A model generated the notes under the pieces. That model was not told where the DNA came from. It made no database searches and saw only the letters and a program-made list of their open reading frames with translations. Position numbers and translations under genes: made by a program. From Klebsiella phage HMGUkp2, in sequence record PV683292.1: a stretch of DNA of 64,000 nt; one strand, written 5' to 3'. Of this stretch, positions 32,006-40,525 are shown piece by piece. Positions within the stretch are counted from its first letter, which is position 1; every line of letters starts with the position of its first letter.

Positions 32006-33139
32006 ATGGCTTATAGCGTATCTATTGCTCCTTTGGCTGCCTCAGCAGTCATTGGGGCTACAACTAATTTTACTGCAACCACGTCTGGTGCTGCGGTCGA
32101 AGGCACAGAAACATTTGAGTGGACTGTAAATGGCGTAAAGCAATCTTCTGTTACTGCAGCTATGAATTATGTTGCTGCAGGACCTGCAGGTAGTAAGACT
32201 GTTAAAGTAGTTGCTACCGTCACTCCAGCTGAAGGCGATCCTGAAACGGCCGAAGCAGAAACTACTCTGACGGTTAAGAACAAAACCATGCCTGCTATTA
32301 CTTTAACTTTGAGCCCAACTTCAGTTTCTAAAGAAATTGGCCAATCTCAAGTAGTTACAGCGGATGTTAGCGGGGCACCGGCGGGAGCAAGCATTGCTTA
32401 CGTGTGGAAACGTGGTACTACTGTTATTGCAGGCCAAACAGGTAAAACAATTACCTTAACTGAATCAGCGGAAACTAGCTATACACTTAATTGTGAAGTA
32501 ACGGTTTCTGCGCCAGATTATAATAATGGAACTGCAACTAAAGGTATCACTGTTGCTTTTACTAAAAAGACCATGAGCGGTGTTTCTGTTACTTTGACTC
32601 CTGAGTCTATTACGACCGAACAAGGGTCTGAAGCATCTTTTAAAGCCAATGTTATCGGCGCACCTTCAGGCGCATCTGTAGCTTATTCATGGACTAAAGA
32701 CGGTTCTCCTATTGAAGGATCAACAAGTACTCTAGAAATTGATACATCTACCATAGGGCCACAAGTAATCGGGGTTTCGGCTGTTGTTTCTGCTCCAGAT
32801 TATAAACCAGCTACAGTTACTAAAACCGGTAATGTAACTATTACTAAAAGGGTAGCCCCTACTCCTGACGGAGAACTTCCATACGTTCATCCGCTCCCGT
32901 TCAGAGGTTCAGCTTATATCTGGTGCGGATGGTGGGTAATGGATGAAATCCAACAAATGACTCTTGAAGGCAAAGATTGGAAACTGGATGATCCTGACAG
33001 CGATTATTACTTGCATCGGTATACCCTGGCTAAAATGCTAGAAGAGTACCCTGAAGTCGATGTCCAAGAATCTAGAAATGGCCGTGTTGTTCACCGGTCC
33101 GCTCTTGATGTTGGAATAATCTACGACTATATCTACTAA
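32006..33139 (+). CDS. hoc: highly immunogenic outer capsid protein Hoc (tandem Ig-like domains)
   Basis: 377 aa (T4 Hoc 376 aa); three internal ~95-aa repeats with Ig-like pattern (TLT..S..V....Q....A.V.GAP.GAS.AY.W......I.G.T...); synteny. Confidence 0.8.
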   Translation: MAYSVSIAPLAASAVIGATTNFTATTSGAAVEGTETFEWTVNGVKQSSVTAAMNYVAAGPAGSKTVKVVATVTPAEGDPETAEAETTLTVKNKTMPAITLTLSPTSVSKEIGQSQVVTADVSGAPAGASIAYVWKRGTTVIAGQTGKTITLTESAETSYTLNCEVTVSAPDYNNGTATKGITVAFTKKTMSGVSVTLTPESITTEQGSEASFKANVIGAPSGASVAYSWTKDGSPIEGSTSTLEIDTSTIGPQVIGVSAVVSAPDYKPATVTKTGNVTITKRVAPTPDGELPYVHPLPFRGSAYIWCGWWVMDEIQQMTLEGKDWKLDDPDSDYYLHRYTLAKMLEEYPEVDVQESRNGRVVHRSALDVGIIYDYIY

Positions 33140-33926: not shown

Positions 33927-34925
33927 GTGTTTGAGAAATATTCTAGTCTTGAGAATCACTACAATAATAAATTTATTGAAAAGATTCGACACCACGGTTA
34001 TGATGTAACTGAAGGCTGGTGTGCACGTGAAAAGATTCATGGTACCAACTTTTCTATTATCATTGAACGTGACGCAGTCACATGCGCGAAGCGCACAGGC
34101 CCTATCCTTCCAGCTGAAGATTTCTTTGGGTACACGGTTATTCTGAAGAAATACAATGACTCTATTAAAGCCGTACAAAATACAATTAAAGAAGGCTGCA
34201 GCATGCAGATCTTCGGCGAATTCGCTGGCACTGGTATCCAGAAAGGTGTTGATTACGGCGAGAAAGACTTCTATGTCTTTGATATCTTGGTTAAAACTGA
34301 TAAAGGTACTAACCAGTTCGTAGATGACTTTACGATGGAACAGATGTGTTGCACCTTTGGTTTTAAGGTTGCACCTCTGATGGGCCGTGGTTCATTTGAT
34401 GAACTAATTAAACTGCCTAATGAGTTCCAGATTAACGTTAAACGTTACAACGAAGCCGCGGCTGAAGATCTCAGAAATGCTAATACCCGAGTCTGGTCGG
34501 CCGAAGAAGCCACAGATAACACGGCAGAAGGTTATGTACTGAAACCTAACTATCCACGGTTCCTGGCTAACGGCAGTCGTGTGGCTATCAAGTGTAAGAA
34601 CTCTAAGTTCAGCGAAAAAGCTAAATCTGATAAGCCTATTAAGCCTAAAGCTGTTCTGGGTGAAATTGACAAAGAGGTTCTGCAGAAATTCTCTGAATAC
34701 GTTACTATTCAGCGTGTAAATAACGTTATTAGTAAGATCGGTAAGGTTGGTCCTAAAGACTTTGGAAAGGTTATGGGCTTGACAGTTCAAGATATCCTTA
34801 TTGAAGCTGAACGAGAAGGGCTCGAGGTAATTCAAGCAGAACAACCTGATATCGTGAAGAAAGAAATTACTAAGCTGGTACAAGACGTGCTTCGCCCAGC
34901 TTGGATTGAATTGGTAAGTAATTAA
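33927..34925 (+). CDS. rnlB: RNA ligase 2
   Basis: 332 aa; very high similarity to T4 Rnl2 ([17 protein letters not shown]..., [52 protein letters not shown]); GTG inferred as start (codon after GTG matches T4 MFKKYSS). Confidence 0.9.
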
Positions 34926-35469
34926 TGAGAGTGGCGCTTATTGGTTCTCGAAAGGCGCCCCGCAAAGTTCTTGATTTGATGATATCTATAGGTGAAAACT
35001 TTTCAAATAAAGGGTATTTAGCTTATAGTGGCGGAGCTCCTGGTTCAGATGAAGCCTGGCTGGCAAAATACGATAGGTCTAAATCTTTAAGAATAATACC
35101 TTACAACGGGTTCTGCGGGCACTTTGTAGGCCCAGGGGTTGTAAGTTTTGAAAACTTACCAGCAGACGTTCAAACTGCTAGTTATAGAATAGCTCAATCA
35201 GTTACCTCGTACTGGGAAAACTGTTCAGATATAGTTAGAAAGTTGTTTGCTCGTAACGCGTGTCAAGTTCTTGGATTAACCTGTCAAAACCCTGTGGATT
35301 TAGTTTTATACTGGGCCCGGTTAGAAACGGTAGAGTTAAAGGCGGGACTAGAGTTGCAGTTGATATAGCTAAAAAGTATGGTATCAAATGTATTAATCTG
35401 AACAATTCAGAAGTATTTAAAAAATTCGAAGATAAGTATAGGCCGAAGTTTGATATTTTCAGTTTATAA
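34925..35469 (+). pseudogene. DprA/Smf-like Rossmann-fold (SLOG-type) protein gene split by a -1 frameshift near 35305-35315 (34925-35368 frame 2; 35260-35469 frame 1)
   Basis: Two overlapping ORFs in adjacent frames together reconstruct a DprA-like domain (ALIGSRKAP...YSGGAPGSDEAWL ... FARNACQVLGLT...VDLVLYW | PVRNGRVKGGTRVAVDIAKKYGIKCINL); shift occurs at homopolymeric tgggcccgg. Confidence 0.55.
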
Positions 35470-35490
35470 GGGAGCCATAAGGCCCCATTT

Positions 35491-36759
35491 TTATTTCTCG
35501 AGCGGTGGTAACTTAACGCCGAGGTAAGAACTTAATAGACTCTGACCAGCCATCTTATCCATATCAGAACCATCGATGATTCGAGCTTCTTTTTCATCTT
35601 TAGCAACAGTGTAAGGATTAGCAGACAAAGCATAACGTGCGAGTAAAGAAATAGTAGGCTGTAAAGAATCAGGGTCGACAACTATCTTGAATTCGCCCAT
35701 TTGATCTACATCATCTTCTACATCCATACCTTCAGTATACGGCGCGTAATATAATGATGCCACCGTCTGGCCTTCACCCATATCTGCATTAACACCAACA
35801 ATCACATATTCTGCCGGCGTATTCATATCCGCATAAAGAGGCAGACCATTCTTCAGATAGCCGTAGGCTAACTCATCACCGTCATCTCGTTTTTCAACCC
35901 AGCCAGAAGCAGCTAAAATAGCCGCACAGCGAGAACTAGCCACAGCATATGTCCCGGCGAACGAAGTATTGCGTTGGACGGCAGAATTCATCTCACACAT
36001 ATAGTAATACAACGTACGTGCACGATCCTGGGCATTATCATATTTAGGGTCCGTAAGGTCTAAAACCCCTTTAGACGACACACCGCGAACTTTAAACCTA
36101 CTAGAAACTGTAACCAACGATTGAAGAATGTCTTTGTTTACTTCTTCAGCCATCTGGATACCTAGCATATCGTCTAAGAAATCAGGGGCATCGAATCCAT
36201 TAGCTTCTAGGTCTTGGGCTAATTCAACAGTAACAGAAGTTTTAAGTTTACGGGATTTAACTGTAGTTTGCCATTTATCGACACGGAACCCGGCTTCAGC
36301 TATTTCAGGGTGCCCGGCCTCAAACTGAGCAGTAGGGGCAGCGTCAGAAACCATGCGGATAGTTCCAGCCGCAATAGCTTCAGAAATAAGCTCATCATGG
36401 CTGGTTTCAGTAGATCCAGCAAAAGGATTATCTTCAAGGGCTTTAAAGACAACAGAGTTATGCTTGAACAGGTCACCTTTATTATATGGGGCTTGGCCGA
36501 CGAATTCCGGTGTATTGGCCCTGGATTCAGGACCCATAAGTCCGCCAAATGTAGCGCCGCCTACATAAGTCATATTATCTTCAGGGTTCAGAACTCTGAT
36601 ACCATATAAAGCGGCAACCGGCTGACGAGTGCGCTGTTCTGCCACAAGGGCCTTAAAGATTCTTTTATTAGTTGCTTTGGTGTATGAAAGTAAATCAGGC
36701 CTCCCGGCCTGATTAGAAGAGGTTAAAGTACTTTCTTGGATTAATCGATCTATTTTCAT
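35491..36759 (-). CDS. second, divergent paralog of head vertex protein gp24
   Basis: 422 aa; shares TQPVAALYG, VELAQDLEANGFDA, FKVVVDPDSLQPTISL..RYALSANPYTVAKDEKEAR.ID blocks with gp24 at 36759-38030 but is clearly diverged; start overlaps upstream gp24 stop (TAATG). Confidence 0.8.
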   Translation of the reverse strand: MKIDRLIQESTLTSSNQAGRPDLLSYTKATNKRIFKALVAEQRTRQPVAALYGIRVLNPEDNMTYVGGATFGGLMGPESRANTPEFVGQAPYNKGDLFKHNSVVFKALEDNPFAGSTETSHDELISEAIAAGTIRMVSDAAPTAQFEAGHPEIAEAGFRVDKWQTTVKSRKLKTSVTVELAQDLEANGFDAPDFLDDMLGIQMAEEVNKDILQSLVTVSSRFKVRGVSSKGVLDLTDPKYDNAQDRARTLYYYMCEMNSAVQRNTSFAGTYAVASSRCAAILAASGWVEKRDDGDELAYGYLKNGLPLYADMNTPAEYVIVGVNADMGEGQTVASLYYAPYTEGMDVEDDVDQMGEFKIVVDPDSLQPTISLLARYALSANPYTVAKDEKEARIIDGSDMDKMAGQSLLSSYLGVKLPPLEK

Positions 36760-38030
36760 TATGGCTCACTTAAAATAGCAGGGAGTTTAACACCCAGAAG
36801 GACAGACATGTCGCTTTGACCCGCCATCTTATCCATATTGGTTGCATCAATATCTCGAGCTTCTTTTTCATCTTTAGCAACGGTATATGGGTTAGCAGAC
36901 AACGCGTACCGAACCATCAACGAAATAGTAGGCTGTAAAGAATCCGGGTCGACAACTACCTTAAAGGCGCCGACATGTTCATCATTATCAAGATCAAGGC
37001 CTTCAGTATAAGGTGCATAGAACAAAGATCCGATAACTTCACTGCCGCCGAAGGATTCTTTAACACCTACAGTGACATAATCTAATGGGCTATTAACATC
37101 AACAAATACCGGAAGACCATTAGCCAGGAACCCGTACGCAGATTCTGCAAGGTATTCATCATCTTCAGGGCGGTGTTTCAGCCATCCAGACCCAGCCAGA
37201 ACAGCAGCAGCACGAGCACTAGCAACGACAAAGGTCCCAGAATAAGAAGTTTTACTTTGAATATGGCTGTTCATTTCGCAAACTAATTGGTAAAGTTTAC
37301 GGGCCGCTTCAGGGGCGCTTGAATAAGATAAATCGACAGATCCGTCGTCAGAAACGCCTGCAACTTTATAACGTTTAGAAACTGTAATCAAGGATTGAAG
37401 AACGTCCTTATTGATTTCATCGGCCATTGTTGTTGCAAGAAGATCTTCAAGAAACATATTAGCATCAAAGCCGTTAGCTTCTAGATCCTGGGCCAGTTCA
37501 ACCGTCAGAGAAGTTTTCAGCTTACGGGTTTTAACTCGAGCGTTCCATTTGTTAACAGTGAAATTAGCAGAACTAATTTCTACATTATTAGATTCAAATT
37601 TAGCCGTTTCAGCGGCCTCAGAATAAAAACGAAGCTTTAAAGTGATAAGGGCTTCAGACAGCGCCTCGTCAATCGTAGCGCCGTTTAGAGCACCCGATTC
37701 TAAGGCCTTATAAACCACATTGTTATACTTATAAAGTGTCCCTGCCGTCACAGAGTGTGTTGCAGAAGTAATTTCTTCTATACTATCCCGGTCAGATGCA
37801 GAAGCAGCACCGCCGTAAGTAGCACCTGTTTTAAAAGAGAGTTCATCGTCTGGGGTTTCGTATTTAACACCATACAGAGCAGCAACAGGCTGAGTAGTAC
37901 GTTGTTCGGCGACGATGTCAGTGTAAACCAATTTAGTAGTAGCGCGGGTCAATGCAACGAGATTCGGGCGACCATATTGGATGCTATTCGTTACAGTTGA
38001 TTCGCGCAGAAGTTCGTTAATTTTAGCCAT
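36759..38030 (-). CDS. 24: head vertex protein
   Basis: 423 aa; N-terminus MAKINELLRESTVTNS..GRPNLVALTRATTKL.Y.DIVA.QRT.QPVAA.YG near-identical to T4 gp24; late promoter 38058-38065. Confidence 0.9.
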   Translation of the reverse strand: MAKINELLRESTVTNSIQYGRPNLVALTRATTKLVYTDIVAEQRTTQPVAALYGVKYETPDDELSFKTGATYGGAASASDRDSIEEITSATHSVTAGTLYKYNNVVYKALESGALNGATIDEALSEALITLKLRFYSEAAETAKFESNNVEISSANFTVNKWNARVKTRKLKTSLTVELAQDLEANGFDANMFLEDLLATTMADEINKDVLQSLITVSKRYKVAGVSDDGSVDLSYSSAPEAARKLYQLVCEMNSHIQSKTSYSGTFVVASARAAAVLAGSGWLKHRPEDDEYLAESAYGFLANGLPVFVDVNSPLDYVTVGVKESFGGSEVIGSLFYAPYTEGLDLDNDEHVGAFKVVVDPDSLQPTISLMVRYALSANPYTVAKDEKEARDIDATNMDKMAGQSDMSVLLGVKLPAILSEP

Positions 38031-38057
38031 TGCGCTTTCCTCGGGTTGATATAATTC

Positions 38058-38065
38058 TATTTATA
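38058..38065 (-). promoter_or_regulatory. late promoter TATAAATA for gene 24
   Basis: 27 nt upstream of gp24 ATG; immediately downstream of gp23 terminator. Confidence 0.65.
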
Positions 38066-38078
38066 AAGGTCTACAAAC

Positions 38079-38104
38079 AAAAATGGGAGAGCGAAAGCTC
38101 TCCC
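38079..38104 (-). terminator. terminator after gene 23: GGGAGAGC-UUUC-GCUCUCCC + AUUUUUGUUUGU (read on - strand)
   Basis: 8-bp stem + U-run; immediately followed by gene 24 late promoter. Confidence 0.8.
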
Positions 38105-38120
38105 ATAAAGGTTTTTAAAA

Positions 38121-39686
38121 TTACAGGCCCTTGACCCATACGCGCCGGAAGTAGGCGTTTTTACCAACGGAGTTAACGATGGACGGCATACCAGACTGAA
38201 TACGTGCACCAGGAGCTTGCAGTTTAGAATCAGCGAACGGGTTAATACCAATACCGTAGCGGGTTTTGAAGCCCATGACCGGCTGGAAGTTCTTAGGATC
38301 AGAACCACGCAGCGGGGTCAGCGCGACATACGGAGCATAGTAGATACCGGCATCCATTTCGTTGCTGCCTTTATAACCGATGGTGAAGTAGTCCTGCGGA
38401 GCATACTGGTCAATGTAGACGCGGTATTTGCCGCCAAGAACACCTGCAAACACGGATTTAGTGGTGTCAACGTTATAGCCTTTACCGAGGCCTTGAGCAG
38501 CATAGGTGATACCAGAATCGGTAGCAGCCAGCGCGTTTACAACGTTACGGGAAGCGATAATGAAGTTACCTTCACCGCGACCGGTCTGACGAGCGATTTC
38601 AGCAGATTCTTTGTCGATCTGGAACAGGAGAGCTTTAAAGCTTTCACCGGCCCAACGAGCGCCACGGATATCAATCGGATCCTGGAAGTCGAACACACCT
38701 GCTTTAGAACCAATGGTCTGGGTCATGCCGGTTTTACCAGGCTGAGCAGAGTAGTTGATCCAGTCAACAACTTCACGGTTGATTTCCAGCATAATTTCAG
38801 TAGCCAGAATAGAACTCAGTTCGGCGTCTGCATCCATACCATGAACAGCGCGCAGATCCTGTGCCAGTTCGATGGAGTATTGAGCTTTCAGCTGACGAGA
38901 TTTAGCTTCGATAACTTGCTTATCGATACGGAAGCCCATTTCGTTCCACGGGTTATCTTTCGAACCGTTGAAGCCTTCCTGCAGTTCAGCGATAGAAGTA
39001 GCCATACCTTCGGCCAGTTCAGCCAGTTTACCGGCTTCAACCAGACCCATAACAACTGCATCCAGTGCGGCGGCGTCAGCGGCAGCTCCCGGGGTTACGG
39101 TTTCAACAGCCTGGAAGTAAGCAATACCGGTTTCCTGGAATACATGCTTAACAATATCACCTTCGGTGATTTCAGTGCCTGCTTTAATTTCAGGGAATGC
39201 ACGACCCTGAGCAGTAGCACCCTGGCCTGAATACATTGCATCCGGAGCAAACATCGGATGGAAAGCTTCTTTAGCACCCGGTGCAATCGGATCTTTACCG
39301 TATACTGCACGCAGTGCAAATACCTGACCAGTCGGGCTGGACATCGGCTGAACGCCACAGATATCAAAAGCAATCAGATTAGGAATAGCACGACGAACCA
39401 TACCCATTACGGCCGGGCCGATCTGAGTGATAGCACCAGAGGTCTGGCCTGCTGCGATATTCTGAGCATCGTAACCGTGGTCACCGCCAATTTCTGCTTC
39501 GCTCAGGAAAGAACCAAAAGCTTCAGCAATTTTTTCGTCACGGAAAGCCGGTTCAGTCTGAATAGCTGCTTCCTGGTTTTCCATAATTTTTGCAATCAGT
39601 GCTTTCTTACCGGCGCCAACGATTTCCGGCAGACCTTCACCTTCAAGCAGCGGAGTCCATTTTTCTACGAGTTTGTTAGTTTTCAT
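38121..39686 (-). CDS. 23: major capsid protein
   Basis: 521 aa; extensive identity with T4 gp23 (KW.PLLEGEGLPEI, AQAFGSFL.EAEIGGDHGY.A.NIAAGQTSGA.TQIGPAVMGMVRRAIPNLIAFDICGVQPM.SPTGQVFALRAVYGKDP). Confidence 0.97.
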   Translation of the reverse strand: MKTNKLVEKWTPLLEGEGLPEIVGAGKKALIAKIMENQEAAIQTEPAFRDEKIAEAFGSFLSEAEIGGDHGYDAQNIAAGQTSGAITQIGPAVMGMVRRAIPNLIAFDICGVQPMSSPTGQVFALRAVYGKDPIAPGAKEAFHPMFAPDAMYSGQGATAQGRAFPEIKAGTEITEGDIVKHVFQETGIAYFQAVETVTPGAAADAAALDAVVMGLVEAGKLAELAEGMATSIAELQEGFNGSKDNPWNEMGFRIDKQVIEAKSRQLKAQYSIELAQDLRAVHGMDADAELSSILATEIMLEINREVVDWINYSAQPGKTGMTQTIGSKAGVFDFQDPIDIRGARWAGESFKALLFQIDKESAEIARQTGRGEGNFIIASRNVVNALAATDSGITYAAQGLGKGYNVDTTKSVFAGVLGGKYRVYIDQYAPQDYFTIGYKGSNEMDAGIYYAPYVALTPLRGSDPKNFQPVMGFKTRYGIGINPFADSKLQAPGARIQSGMPSIVNSVGKNAYFRRVWVKGL

Positions 39687-39706
39687 GTGTTAATAACCTT
39701 TTTAAA

Positions 39707-40525
39707 TTAAGAAATACGAGCCGCTGAAGCGACATATGCAGCCATCAGGCCACCGGATTGTTTAGGAGTTTCTTCGGGTTCTACAGCTTCGACAGTGAAG
39801 TTAAGACCCTCAGCATCTTTGTCAATAGTATTTATATCAGCACTTTCGACAATTGCTGAAGCTTCAGCGGAGGACTGTACCATTTCTACGATGGCGGCCA
39901 GTTTAGTACCGAATGCATCAGAATATTCCAAACCTTCAGTCAGAGAAATAACTTTCTCTTTCTGGGATTCAGTTAAGTCGCGGGTAGCTTCGTTCATAGC
40001 AGTTTCGCGTTGAACGTAATTGATATAAGCATCGCGCATGTTTACTTCTTCAAACAGACGCGCAGTTTCAGCTTTCTGTTCAGCGATTTCTTCTTGGAGT
40101 TCTGCAACAACATCTACAGCATCTTCCGGAACCACAACGTTATGTTCGACGAACAGATCTTTCAGACCGACAACCATGGATTCGAATAAGTCAGCTTTAA
40201 TACCACGATCTACAGCCAGTTTGTTTTCGGCAAGCCATTCTTTGGCGACGTGGTCGAGGAACTTAGCGGCAGATTCAGCGATTTTTTTCTCAGCTTTTTC
40301 TTCGGCTTTTTCCTTTTCTTCTTCGACTTTTTCTTCGGCCAGGGTGGCGATTTTTTCGATGTGAGATTCAGCCAGCTTTACAGCGGCGGCTTTTACAGCA
40401 GTTTCGTAAACAGTTTCAAACTTAGCCTTAACATCGGCAGACAGTTCAACTGATTCGAAAATGCTATCTAGTTCGACTTTAGCATCAATAGTCTGAGCTT
40501 CGGTCATCAGAAGTTCTTTAAGCAT
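39707..40525 (-). CDS. 22: prohead core scaffolding protein
   Basis: 272 aa (T4 269), highly acidic/K-E-rich coiled coil, synteny 21-22-23; late promoter 40555-40562. Confidence 0.8.
   Translation of the reverse strand: MLKELLMTEAQTIDAKVELDSIFESVELSADVKAKFETVYETAVKAAAVKLAESHIEKIATLAEEKVEEEKEKAEEKAEKKIAESAAKFLDHVAKEWLAENKLAVDRGIKADLFESMVVGLKDLFVEHNVVVPEDAVDVVAELQEEIAEQKAETARLFEEVNMRDAYINYVQRETAMNEATRDLTESQKEKVISLTEGLEYSDAFGTKLAAIVEMVQSSAEASAIVESADINTIDKDAEGLNFTVEAVEPEETPKQSGGLMAAYVASAARIS

Follow-up and report, generated by a model that had tools for sequence, protein, structure and literature searches.

Tandem gene 24 homologs in Klebsiella phage HMGUkp2: a T4-type capsid vertex protein gene and a probable old second vertex-protein lineage

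In T4-type heads, gp23, a protein of about 520 amino acids (aa) with a propeptide of about 65 residues, forms hexamers, and gp24 forms pentamers that occupy the 11 non-portal vertices of the mature head. T4 and most of its relatives carry a single gene 24, and the PDB entries for gp24 are those of T4 only. gp24 probably arose from gp23 by duplication, and its first 10 residues are cut off by the gp21 prohead protease (PMC9958956). Some T4-like phages carry two gene 24 homologs in tandem; such pairs are already known and annotated, in about 116 GenBank phage records that span five genera. Here we analyse the pair found in a 64,000-nucleotide (nt) stretch of Klebsiella phage HMGUkp2 (PV683292.1; the whole stretch is referred to as the window). 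The two genes, designated 24A and 24B, and the neighbouring gene 23 are located as follows:

36759..38030, minus strand: 24A, capsid vertex protein gene, 423 aa, ATG start, ortholog of T4 gp24
35491..36759, minus strand: 24B, second vertex-protein paralog gene, 422 aa, ATG start
38121..39686, minus strand: gene 23 (major capsid protein gp23, 521 aa), distant paralog of both gene 24 copies

Judged by sequence, 24A is an ordinary ortholog of T4 gp24 and 24B represents an old second vertex-protein lineage, and the two probably constitute a functional pair of paralogous, non-redundant vertex proteins. The closest described systems are the annotated pairs of other T4-like phages. Both genes are annotated as 'capsid vertex protein' in Marfa, F48, STML-198, S16, JS98, CIP9, Kosakonia phage 305, and Cronus. 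Specifically, the Dhakavirus labels are '24' and '24b' in JS98 and IME08, '24(2)' in VR7, and 'capsid vertex protein I/II' in VR5, VR20, and VR26; the Gelderlandvirus pairs are those of S16 (gp108/gp109), STML-198, and CGG4-1 ('head vertex protein I/II'); the Kanagawavirus pairs are those of CIP9 and Kosakonia phage 305; the Roskildevirus pair is that of Erwinia phage Cronus; and the Marfavirus pairs are those of Marfa (gp188/gp189) and F48 (gp235/gp234). 24B of the window is 99.3% identical to its counterpart in Marfa, 97% to that in F48, 79% to JS98 24b, and 77% to S16 gp109. These genes are direct orthologs, with the same gene order, coupling, and promoter layout, and the comparison reveals no substantial difference. 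At the nucleotide level, the region is 96.5–97.5% identical to Klebsiella phages EI, Marfa, and Clarke_MM3 (genus Marfavirus) and about 89–90% identical to F48 and its relatives; on this measure, the window is another Marfavirus isolate, a near-duplicate of published genomes.

A tblastn search with 24B identifies a B-type gene in 116 phage records at E ≤ 1e-170, and any gp24 in 1,416 records, at 1,534 places, at E ≤ 1e-40. The excess of about 118 places, set beside the 116 B-type records, fits the presence of two copies in about 8% of sequenced T4-like phages. The genera with 24B are Marfa-, Dhaka-, Gelderland-, and Roskildeviruses, together with some Kanagawaviruses. About 1,300 of the 1,416 records with a gp24 match have a single place, and the Tequatrovirus RB27 has one gene 24, in agreement with an earlier reading of this DNA from its letters and open reading frames alone (hereafter the sequence-only reading), which had noted that T4 has a single gene 24. 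24B is positioned directly 3′ of 24A in five of five metagenomic contigs examined and in every locus inspected, and never occurs alone; in particular, no phage with a B-type protein as its sole vertex protein is present among the 1,416 isolate records (counts only) or among 142 database clusters.

The 24A and 24B proteins are 54% identical over 424 alignment columns (BLASTP, E 6e-166), a similarity that, by this comparison, far exceeds chance, while the gp23 of the window is 24–26% identical to either of them (E 2e-20). The proteins share the conserved blocks VELAQDLEANGFDA, VVDPDSLQPTISL, and RYALSANPYTVAKDEKEAR; a further block, TQPVAALYG, is exact in 24A and reads RQPVAALYG in 24B. The N-terminus of 24A starts MAKINELLRESTVTNS, and that of T4 gp24 (PDB 1YUE) starts MAKINELLRESTTTNS. 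The sequence-only reading, which had described two adjacent minus-strand genes of about 422 codons, both of the gp24 family and both retaining the conserved blocks, is borne out in each respect, with the one substitution just given.

Comparison with T4 gp24 (PDB 1YUE, 5VF3 chain a, 7VS5; PF07068) places both proteins in the gp24 class. 24A and 24B are of the same length as T4-type gp24 and are 69% and 56% identical to it, respectively (69% between 24A and the gp24 of T4-like RB27), and they share with it the position after gene 23, late-promoter control, the N-terminal L/I-x-E↓S motif (the arrow marks where T4 gp24 is cut), and a predicted HK97-type fold with an insertion domain. They differ from it in that T4 and most relatives have one gene 24 where the window has two, and in that 24B is set apart from every T4-type gp24 protein by 33 clade-specific positions, with a concentration in the N-arm. 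Against PDB sequences, 24A scores 639 bits to T4 gp24 (1YUE) and 48 bits to gp23, and 24B scores 504 and 45 bits, respectively. Pfam PF07068 'Gp23' and PHROG 138 match both proteins; these models span gp23 and gp24 and do not discriminate between them. An AlphaFold2 model of 24B alone is of moderate confidence (predicted local distance difference test 72.6, predicted template modelling score 0.69), and its best Foldseek matches are T4 gp24 chain 5vf3_a (template modelling (TM) score 0.81/0.83, E 1e-47), 1yue, and 7vrt_he; gp23 chains match at lower TM scores of about 0.55–0.6. 24B is thus predicted to have an HK97-type fold with the gp24 insertion domain, and is closer to gp24 than to gp23 or another fold both in sequence and in model, contrary to the outcome that the sequence-only reading had named as refuting its view. 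The lengths of 423 and 422 aa, the lack of a long N-terminal extension, and the identity of about 25% to gp23 rule out the gp23 class for both proteins. The gp23/gp24 pair of T4 is itself a parallel, as a capsid-protein gene duplication followed by specialisation in the same head-gene cluster; it differs from the present pair in its lower identity, about 25% versus 54% for 24A and 24B, and in the proven distinct roles of its two members.

The gene order is gp22, gp23, terminator, TATAAATA, 24A, 24B, and the signals around the pair are as follows:

38083..38106, minus strand: terminator-like hairpin 3′ of gp23, with a 10 bp stem containing 6 GC pairs, followed by TTTTTGTTTGT (promoter/terminator scan)
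38058..38065, minus strand: consensus sequence TATAAATA of a T4-type late promoter, 28 nt upstream of the 24A ATG (motif search)
38039..38042, minus strand: Shine-Dalgarno GAGG, 8 nt upstream of the 24A ATG, read in gaggaaagcgcaATG; a ribosome-binding site is annotated there in Marfa
36757..36761, minus strand: TAATG junction, one base of which belongs both to the 24A stop TAA (36761-36759) and to the 24B start ATG (36759-36757)
35470..35486, minus strand: imperfect hairpin GGGGCC-TTAT-GGCTCCC directly 3′ of the 24B stop, between the convergent 24B and dprA-like genes

The first hairpin sets the gene 24 operon apart from gp23; its equivalent in Marfa carries a terminator annotation. The motif search of the DNA found no second copy of the late-promoter consensus between 35400 and 38057, so that, on sequence, the one late promoter TATAAATA serves both 24A and 24B, and the TAATG overlap indicates translational coupling of the two genes. 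The Shine-Dalgarno sequence of 24B is weak in the window (GTGAG); GAGG precedes 24B in JS98, S16, and CIP9. The hairpin 3′ of 24B is probably the operon terminator: it was not called by a consensus terminator scan, is annotated as a terminator in Marfa, and has one mismatch relative to the perfect version in F48 (GGGAGCC-TTAC-GGCTCCC). The layout is conserved in the 10 loci compared, which cover five genera and metagenomes. In particular, every one of the 10 has a late-promoter box at the same place upstream of 24A, which reads CATAAATA in L024 and TATAAATA in the other nine, and none has such a box inside 24A; the distance from the 24A stop to the 24B start is −4 to +1 nt in all 10 (the junction is TAATG in the window and ATGA in F48); and a GC hairpin is present 3′ of 24B in all 10. 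The statements of the sequence-only reading that the upstream, T4-like copy is preceded by a late promoter, and that the downstream copy is TAATG-coupled to the first and without a promoter of its own, are both upheld, and by these signals 24A and 24B are co-transcribed and coupled.

For phylogenetic analysis, we assembled the gene 24 region from 19 isolate phage records (L001–L020, with STML-198 present twice) and six metagenomic loci from five samples, and added 120 database proteins to the gp24 comparison. Neighbour-joining trees of 33 and 100 taxa were rooted on gp23 and bootstrapped with a vectorised Kimura-distance implementation. All B copies form one clade, with bootstrap support of 96% (33 taxa) and 98% (100 taxa); it unites 24B with the downstream genes of Dhaka-, Gelderland-, Kanagawa-, and Roskildeviruses and with those of metagenomic contigs. 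Instead of lying beside the A copies, the B clade splits off close to the root of the Tevenvirinae-type gp24 radiation, where backbone support is weak (41–57%). In the 33-taxon tree, B lies outside a crown clade, supported at 92%, that is made up of T4, Karam-, Gapriver-, and Mosugukvirus, PEi20, and A copies from four genera; this version is without the Roskildevirus-type A copies, and the crown clade plus Cronus_A has 87% support.

Pairwise identities agree with the trees. 24B of the window is 66–79% identical to the downstream copies of JS98, S16, CIP9, and Cronus and at most 64% identical to any other gp24 (55–58% to T4-type gp24, 61–64% to Jiaodavirus gp24). A and B are about 55% identical in every genome, and 24B is no closer to its own 24A than to other Tevenvirinae gp24 proteins (55–64%). 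B orthologs are 66–84% identical across genera, and the main B subclade is star-like (73–84%). In addition, 24B agrees with the outgroups Krisch-, Slopek-, and Tulanevirus in several N-arm residues (for example Asn31, Ser25, Phe35, and Arg55, in B numbering), at positions where all A-type and single-copy Tevenvirinae proteins share another residue. Together, the single B clade, the identities, and the outgroup-like residues argue that 24B is an old lineage and not a recent derivative of the gene 24 of the window.

A recent, lineage-specific tandem duplication of this phage's gene 24, with fast divergence of the downstream copy, would account for two adjacent, co-oriented genes of equal length and 54% identity, for 3′ ends (about 120 nt) that are 82% identical, and for a codon identity at identical residues of 68% within Marfavirus versus about 50% between genomes. 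We nevertheless regard it as extremely improbable. In the trees, 24B is placed beside downstream copies from four other genera rather than beside its own 24A; the A–B identity is about 55% throughout; 24B is as close, or closer, to unrelated single-copy gp24 proteins such as that of Jiaodavirus; the B orthologs are 66–84% identical across genera; and N-arm residues of 24B are outgroup-like. The pairwise alignment and gp24 phylogeny that the sequence-only reading had suggested as a check thus give 54% identity and a 24B that sits in its own clade with the downstream copies of other genera. Of the tandem duplication proposed there, the paralogy of 24A and 24B stands, and a local duplication with a decaying copy, which we read as implied, is not supported, in view of the 96–98% support for the B clade and the purifying selection described below. 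Likewise, its description of the downstream copy as strongly diverged holds relative to T4 (56% identity) but not among its own orthologs, where 24B is as conserved as 24A.

How 24B came to lie behind gene 24 admits either of two histories: one ancient tandem duplication followed by repeated loss, or lateral acquisition followed by spread through recombination. The second, which concerns origin only and not function, would have 24B acquired from an unsampled deep-branching T4-like lineage, placed behind a resident gene 24, and spread by homologous recombination; we regard it as plausible, at somewhat less than an even chance. At least four distinct 24A lineages have 24B as a partner, and their nearest relatives are single-copy; the distribution of 24B is patchy even within Kanagawavirus (one gene 24 in PEi20, two in CIP9 and Kosakonia phage 305); the main B subclade is star-like; and crossover could take place in the highly conserved 3′ part of gene 24, where a stretch of 27 nt is identical. 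Lateral acquisition is opposed by the lack of any B-only phage among the isolate records and database clusters searched, and by the Cronus-type A and B proteins, each of which is the most divergent in its own clade, as vertical co-descent predicts. Within Kanagawavirus, which counts as one genus in the ICTV classification, the A-type proteins of PEi20 and of CIP9 and Kosakonia phage 305 fall in different clades, and this sequence pattern indicates that head-gene modules have been exchanged within the genus.

Possible traces of recombination are also present within the genes. The 27-nt identical run lies in the last approximately 45 codons of 24B (window 35552-35690) and 24A (window 36820-36960), where the two are 81% identical at the nucleotide level; nucleotide identity is about 55% elsewhere. 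In Marfavirus only, codon identity at identical residues over the last 45 codons is 62–75%, versus about 50% between genomes, on about 35 codons, which is a weak hint of local gene conversion or a recombination hotspot at the 3′ ends. Concerted evolution of the two genes as a whole was considered and rejected, whole-gene codon values having no within-genome excess. The single gp24 proteins of Klebsiella phage Mexia (L008 1495-2775) and Serratia phage CHI14 (L010 1495-2748) have A-like ends and a B-leaning middle third (columns about 100–300), and the middle of Mexia gp24 shares the otherwise B-specific residues F105, A130, M136, and C278 (B numbering). This pattern possibly reflects mosaic recombination with a B-type gene or retained ancestral states; Winklervirus has a weaker A-B-A-like pattern. 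We rejected the proposal that this single Jiaodavirus gp24 (Mexia) is an A/B hybrid from unequal crossing-over: the pattern is A-like, B-like, A-like, whereas deletion would give an A N-terminus and a B C-terminus, and Mexia gp24 is therefore not a simple collapse product.

Both genes are under strong purifying selection, which is as tight on 24B as on 24A or tighter. The ratio of nonsynonymous to synonymous substitution rates (dN/dS), taken where synonymous sites are unsaturated, is 0.045–0.068 for 24A and 0.023–0.049 for 24B within Marfavirus, and 0.028 (A) and 0.022 (B) between CIP9 and Kosakonia phage 305; each of the 15 B genes examined has an undisrupted reading frame. These values bear on the idea that 24B is a redundant spare or a decaying copy without a role of its own. 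Many close relatives do manage with one gp24, and in the window 24B has no promoter of its own and a weak Shine-Dalgarno sequence, as such a copy might. Still, we consider this very unlikely: the frame is intact throughout, dN/dS of 0.02–0.05 lies below that of 24A, the gene is kept across five genera, a GAGG Shine-Dalgarno sequence is present in JS98, S16, and CIP9, and 24B has its own constraint pattern and 33 clade-specific residues.

The constraint patterns of the two proteins were compared by region over 28 inter-genus pairs. The propeptide and N-arm are more conserved in A (80–85%) than in B (60–72%). In contrast, residues 56–155, which we take, from the secondary structure of the model and the T4 structure, to be the surface-exposed insertion domain, are 50% conserved in A and 62% in B (B higher in 25 of 28 pairs), and the A-domain region is 69% conserved in A and 77% in B (B higher in 26 of 28 pairs). 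The parts most similar between A and B are the E-loop and spine-helix region and the C-terminal P-domain region (71% identity). Seven of the 33 B-specific columns cluster in N-arm residues 24–35. Fixed differences between the two proteins include Tyr57 in A versus Val56 in B and Pro240 in A versus Gln244 in B; B also has three extra residues at 238–240 and lacks four near A residue 293. The differing conservation profiles argue that 24A and 24B are not redundant. The alignment contains no column that separates partnered A proteins from single-copy crown gp24, and a signature of subfunctionalisation, sought in the partnered A proteins, was rejected, there being no partner-linked residue. This points to 24A as an unmodified gp24 and to 24B as an accessory with its own constraints. 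In T4, the N-arms of cleaved gp24 (gp24*) are ordered on the outer surface after expansion and touch neighbouring subunits (PMC9958956), and a distinct 24B N-arm would thus mean different neighbour contacts.

Both proteins also carry a candidate prohead-protease site. The 24A propeptide is MAKINELLRE↓S, with the motif LLRE↓S at residues 7–11, and the 24B propeptide is MKIDRLIQE↓S, with the motif LIQE↓S at residues 6–10, which keeps I-x-E↓S. An [L/I/M]-x-E-S motif is present at residues about 6–11 in 15 of 15 A and 15 of 15 B proteins, with Ser changed to Asn or Val in a few B proteins. By analogy with T4 gp24, both proteins would be matured like gp24, losing about 9–10 N-terminal residues to the gp21 protease.

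These results suggest the following arrangement. A conserved late operon consisting of late promoter, 24A, 24B, and terminator would encode two different capsid vertex proteins. Selection, operon layout, and cleavage motif point to both proteins being made late, in a fixed ratio, entering the prohead, and being matured like gp24; both would then sit as pentamer-forming subunits at non-portal vertices. The arrangement we prefer, and hold weakly, is that 24A and 24B each form homopentamers of their own, which occupy different subsets of the 11 vertices in the prolate head. That these subsets correspond to geometrically different vertex classes is a tentative proposal, and on balance unlikely; for example, the single apical vertex, or one of the rings of five vertices, could be held by one type and all other vertices by the second. 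The more conserved outer surface of a 24B pentamer, comprising the insertion and A domains, could be a docking site for another factor.

Mixed pentamers, in which 24A and 24B would co-assemble at every vertex, are a further arrangement, one that the tight and conserved translational coupling would serve by supplying both subunits together in a fixed ratio, and that the similarity of the E-loop/spine-helix and C-terminal P-domain regions would permit. A five-fold ring, however, cannot hold two subunit types symmetrically; co-assembly should leave co-adapted interface changes, whereas A has no partner-linked residue; and 24B partners at least four different A lineages. We consider heteromeric pentamers improbable, and less probable than the separate homopentamers at distinct vertex classes described above. 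The remaining probability belongs to other arrangements, such as homopentamers of both kinds without a fixed pattern, and to a role outside the mature shell. As for the heteromeric or specialised vertices that the sequence-only reading had put forward as possibilities, the computed results neither favour nor contradict them.

Several observations weigh against this picture of a functional pair. Sequence comparison reveals that 24B is evolutionarily dispensable, in that close relatives of partnered A proteins work alone, which argues against an obligatory structural role such as that of a geometrically required special vertex. In particular, in two metagenomic contigs in which 24B follows 24A, L025_A is 77% identical to Karamvirus gp24 and 76% to T4-type gp24, and L026_A is 76% identical to the gp24 proteins of PEi20 and PM2, the nearest relatives being single-copy in both cases; and Kanagawavirus is split between PEi20 (L012), with one gene 24, and CIP9 (L005) and Kosakonia phage 305 (L020), with two. 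F48, which has the pair, has an ordinary prolate head of 120 x 80 nm (PMC6163469), and thus no unusual geometry demanding a second vertex protein. The backbone support for the deep position of the B clade is weak and comes from neighbour-joining only, and we found in the literature no proteomics, genetics, structure, or discussion of the second gp24 for any two-gp24 phage.

We found no gene that constantly accompanies 24B, and its downstream neighbours differ between the lineages compared: a split dprA-like gene in the window; unrelated hypothetical genes in Marfa, kv8, and L025; and collagen-repeat and Hoc-C-domain genes in Cronus. The DprA-like recombination-mediator gene of the window (34925-35469, plus strand), convergent with 24B, is split into two overlapping open reading frames, 34925..35368 (147 aa) and 35260..35469 (69 aa). 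The split results from a 1-nt deletion after 35316 relative to F48, and intact S16 and Mexia homologs align across it in two frames; either the gene is a pseudogene or the deletion is an error of sequencing. In F48 the annotation covers only a 59-aa fragment, and Marfa carries an unrelated gene at that position. In Cronus (L006 4821-6336), 24B is directly followed, on the same strand, by a gene for a 337-aa collagen-repeat protein (PF01391; PHROG 'tail fiber') and by one for a 166-aa protein whose match to Hoc is confined to the capsid-binding C-terminal part; these could specify a split, collagen-like head decoration. The layout of L021 4890-6427 and L024 6326-7841 resembles that of Cronus by gene length and position alone, and the gene pair is absent from the window.

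Other observations concern the wider head-gene region. A 377-aa protein with Ig-like repeats, encoded at 32006-33139 (plus strand) of the window, is a Hoc-like head decoration protein (PHROG 1149, E 2e-115); the Hoc-like gene of F48 is annotated as two separate open reading frames, so the decoration gene, too, varies within the genus. In Klebsiella phage PhiKpNIH-6 (Marfavirus; MN395284.1 135062-138478), a homing endonuclease gene is annotated within the gp23/gene 24 region and splits the nucleotide match in two. GC content peaks at 0.48 over gene 23 (window 38001-40000), versus 0.37–0.44 in the rest of the window, a peak that is probably due to codon bias in gene 23 as the late gene with the highest expression.

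As a genome feature, the pair adds nothing new, being annotated in more than 100 public phage genomes, beginning with JS98. We found no published test of the presence of the second vertex protein in the virion, its position, or its advantage, a question of moderate interest for capsid structural biology. The present analysis narrows that question: 24A appears unchanged by its partner, and 24B appears to be an accessory lineage of long standing, its N-arm distinct and its outer surface more conserved, a second vertex protein that has been kept under strong selection for long and yet has been lost, or was never gained, in close relatives. If 24A and 24B do occupy distinct vertex classes, the T4-type capsid of these phages would contain three specialised shell proteins and have corners that differ chemically.

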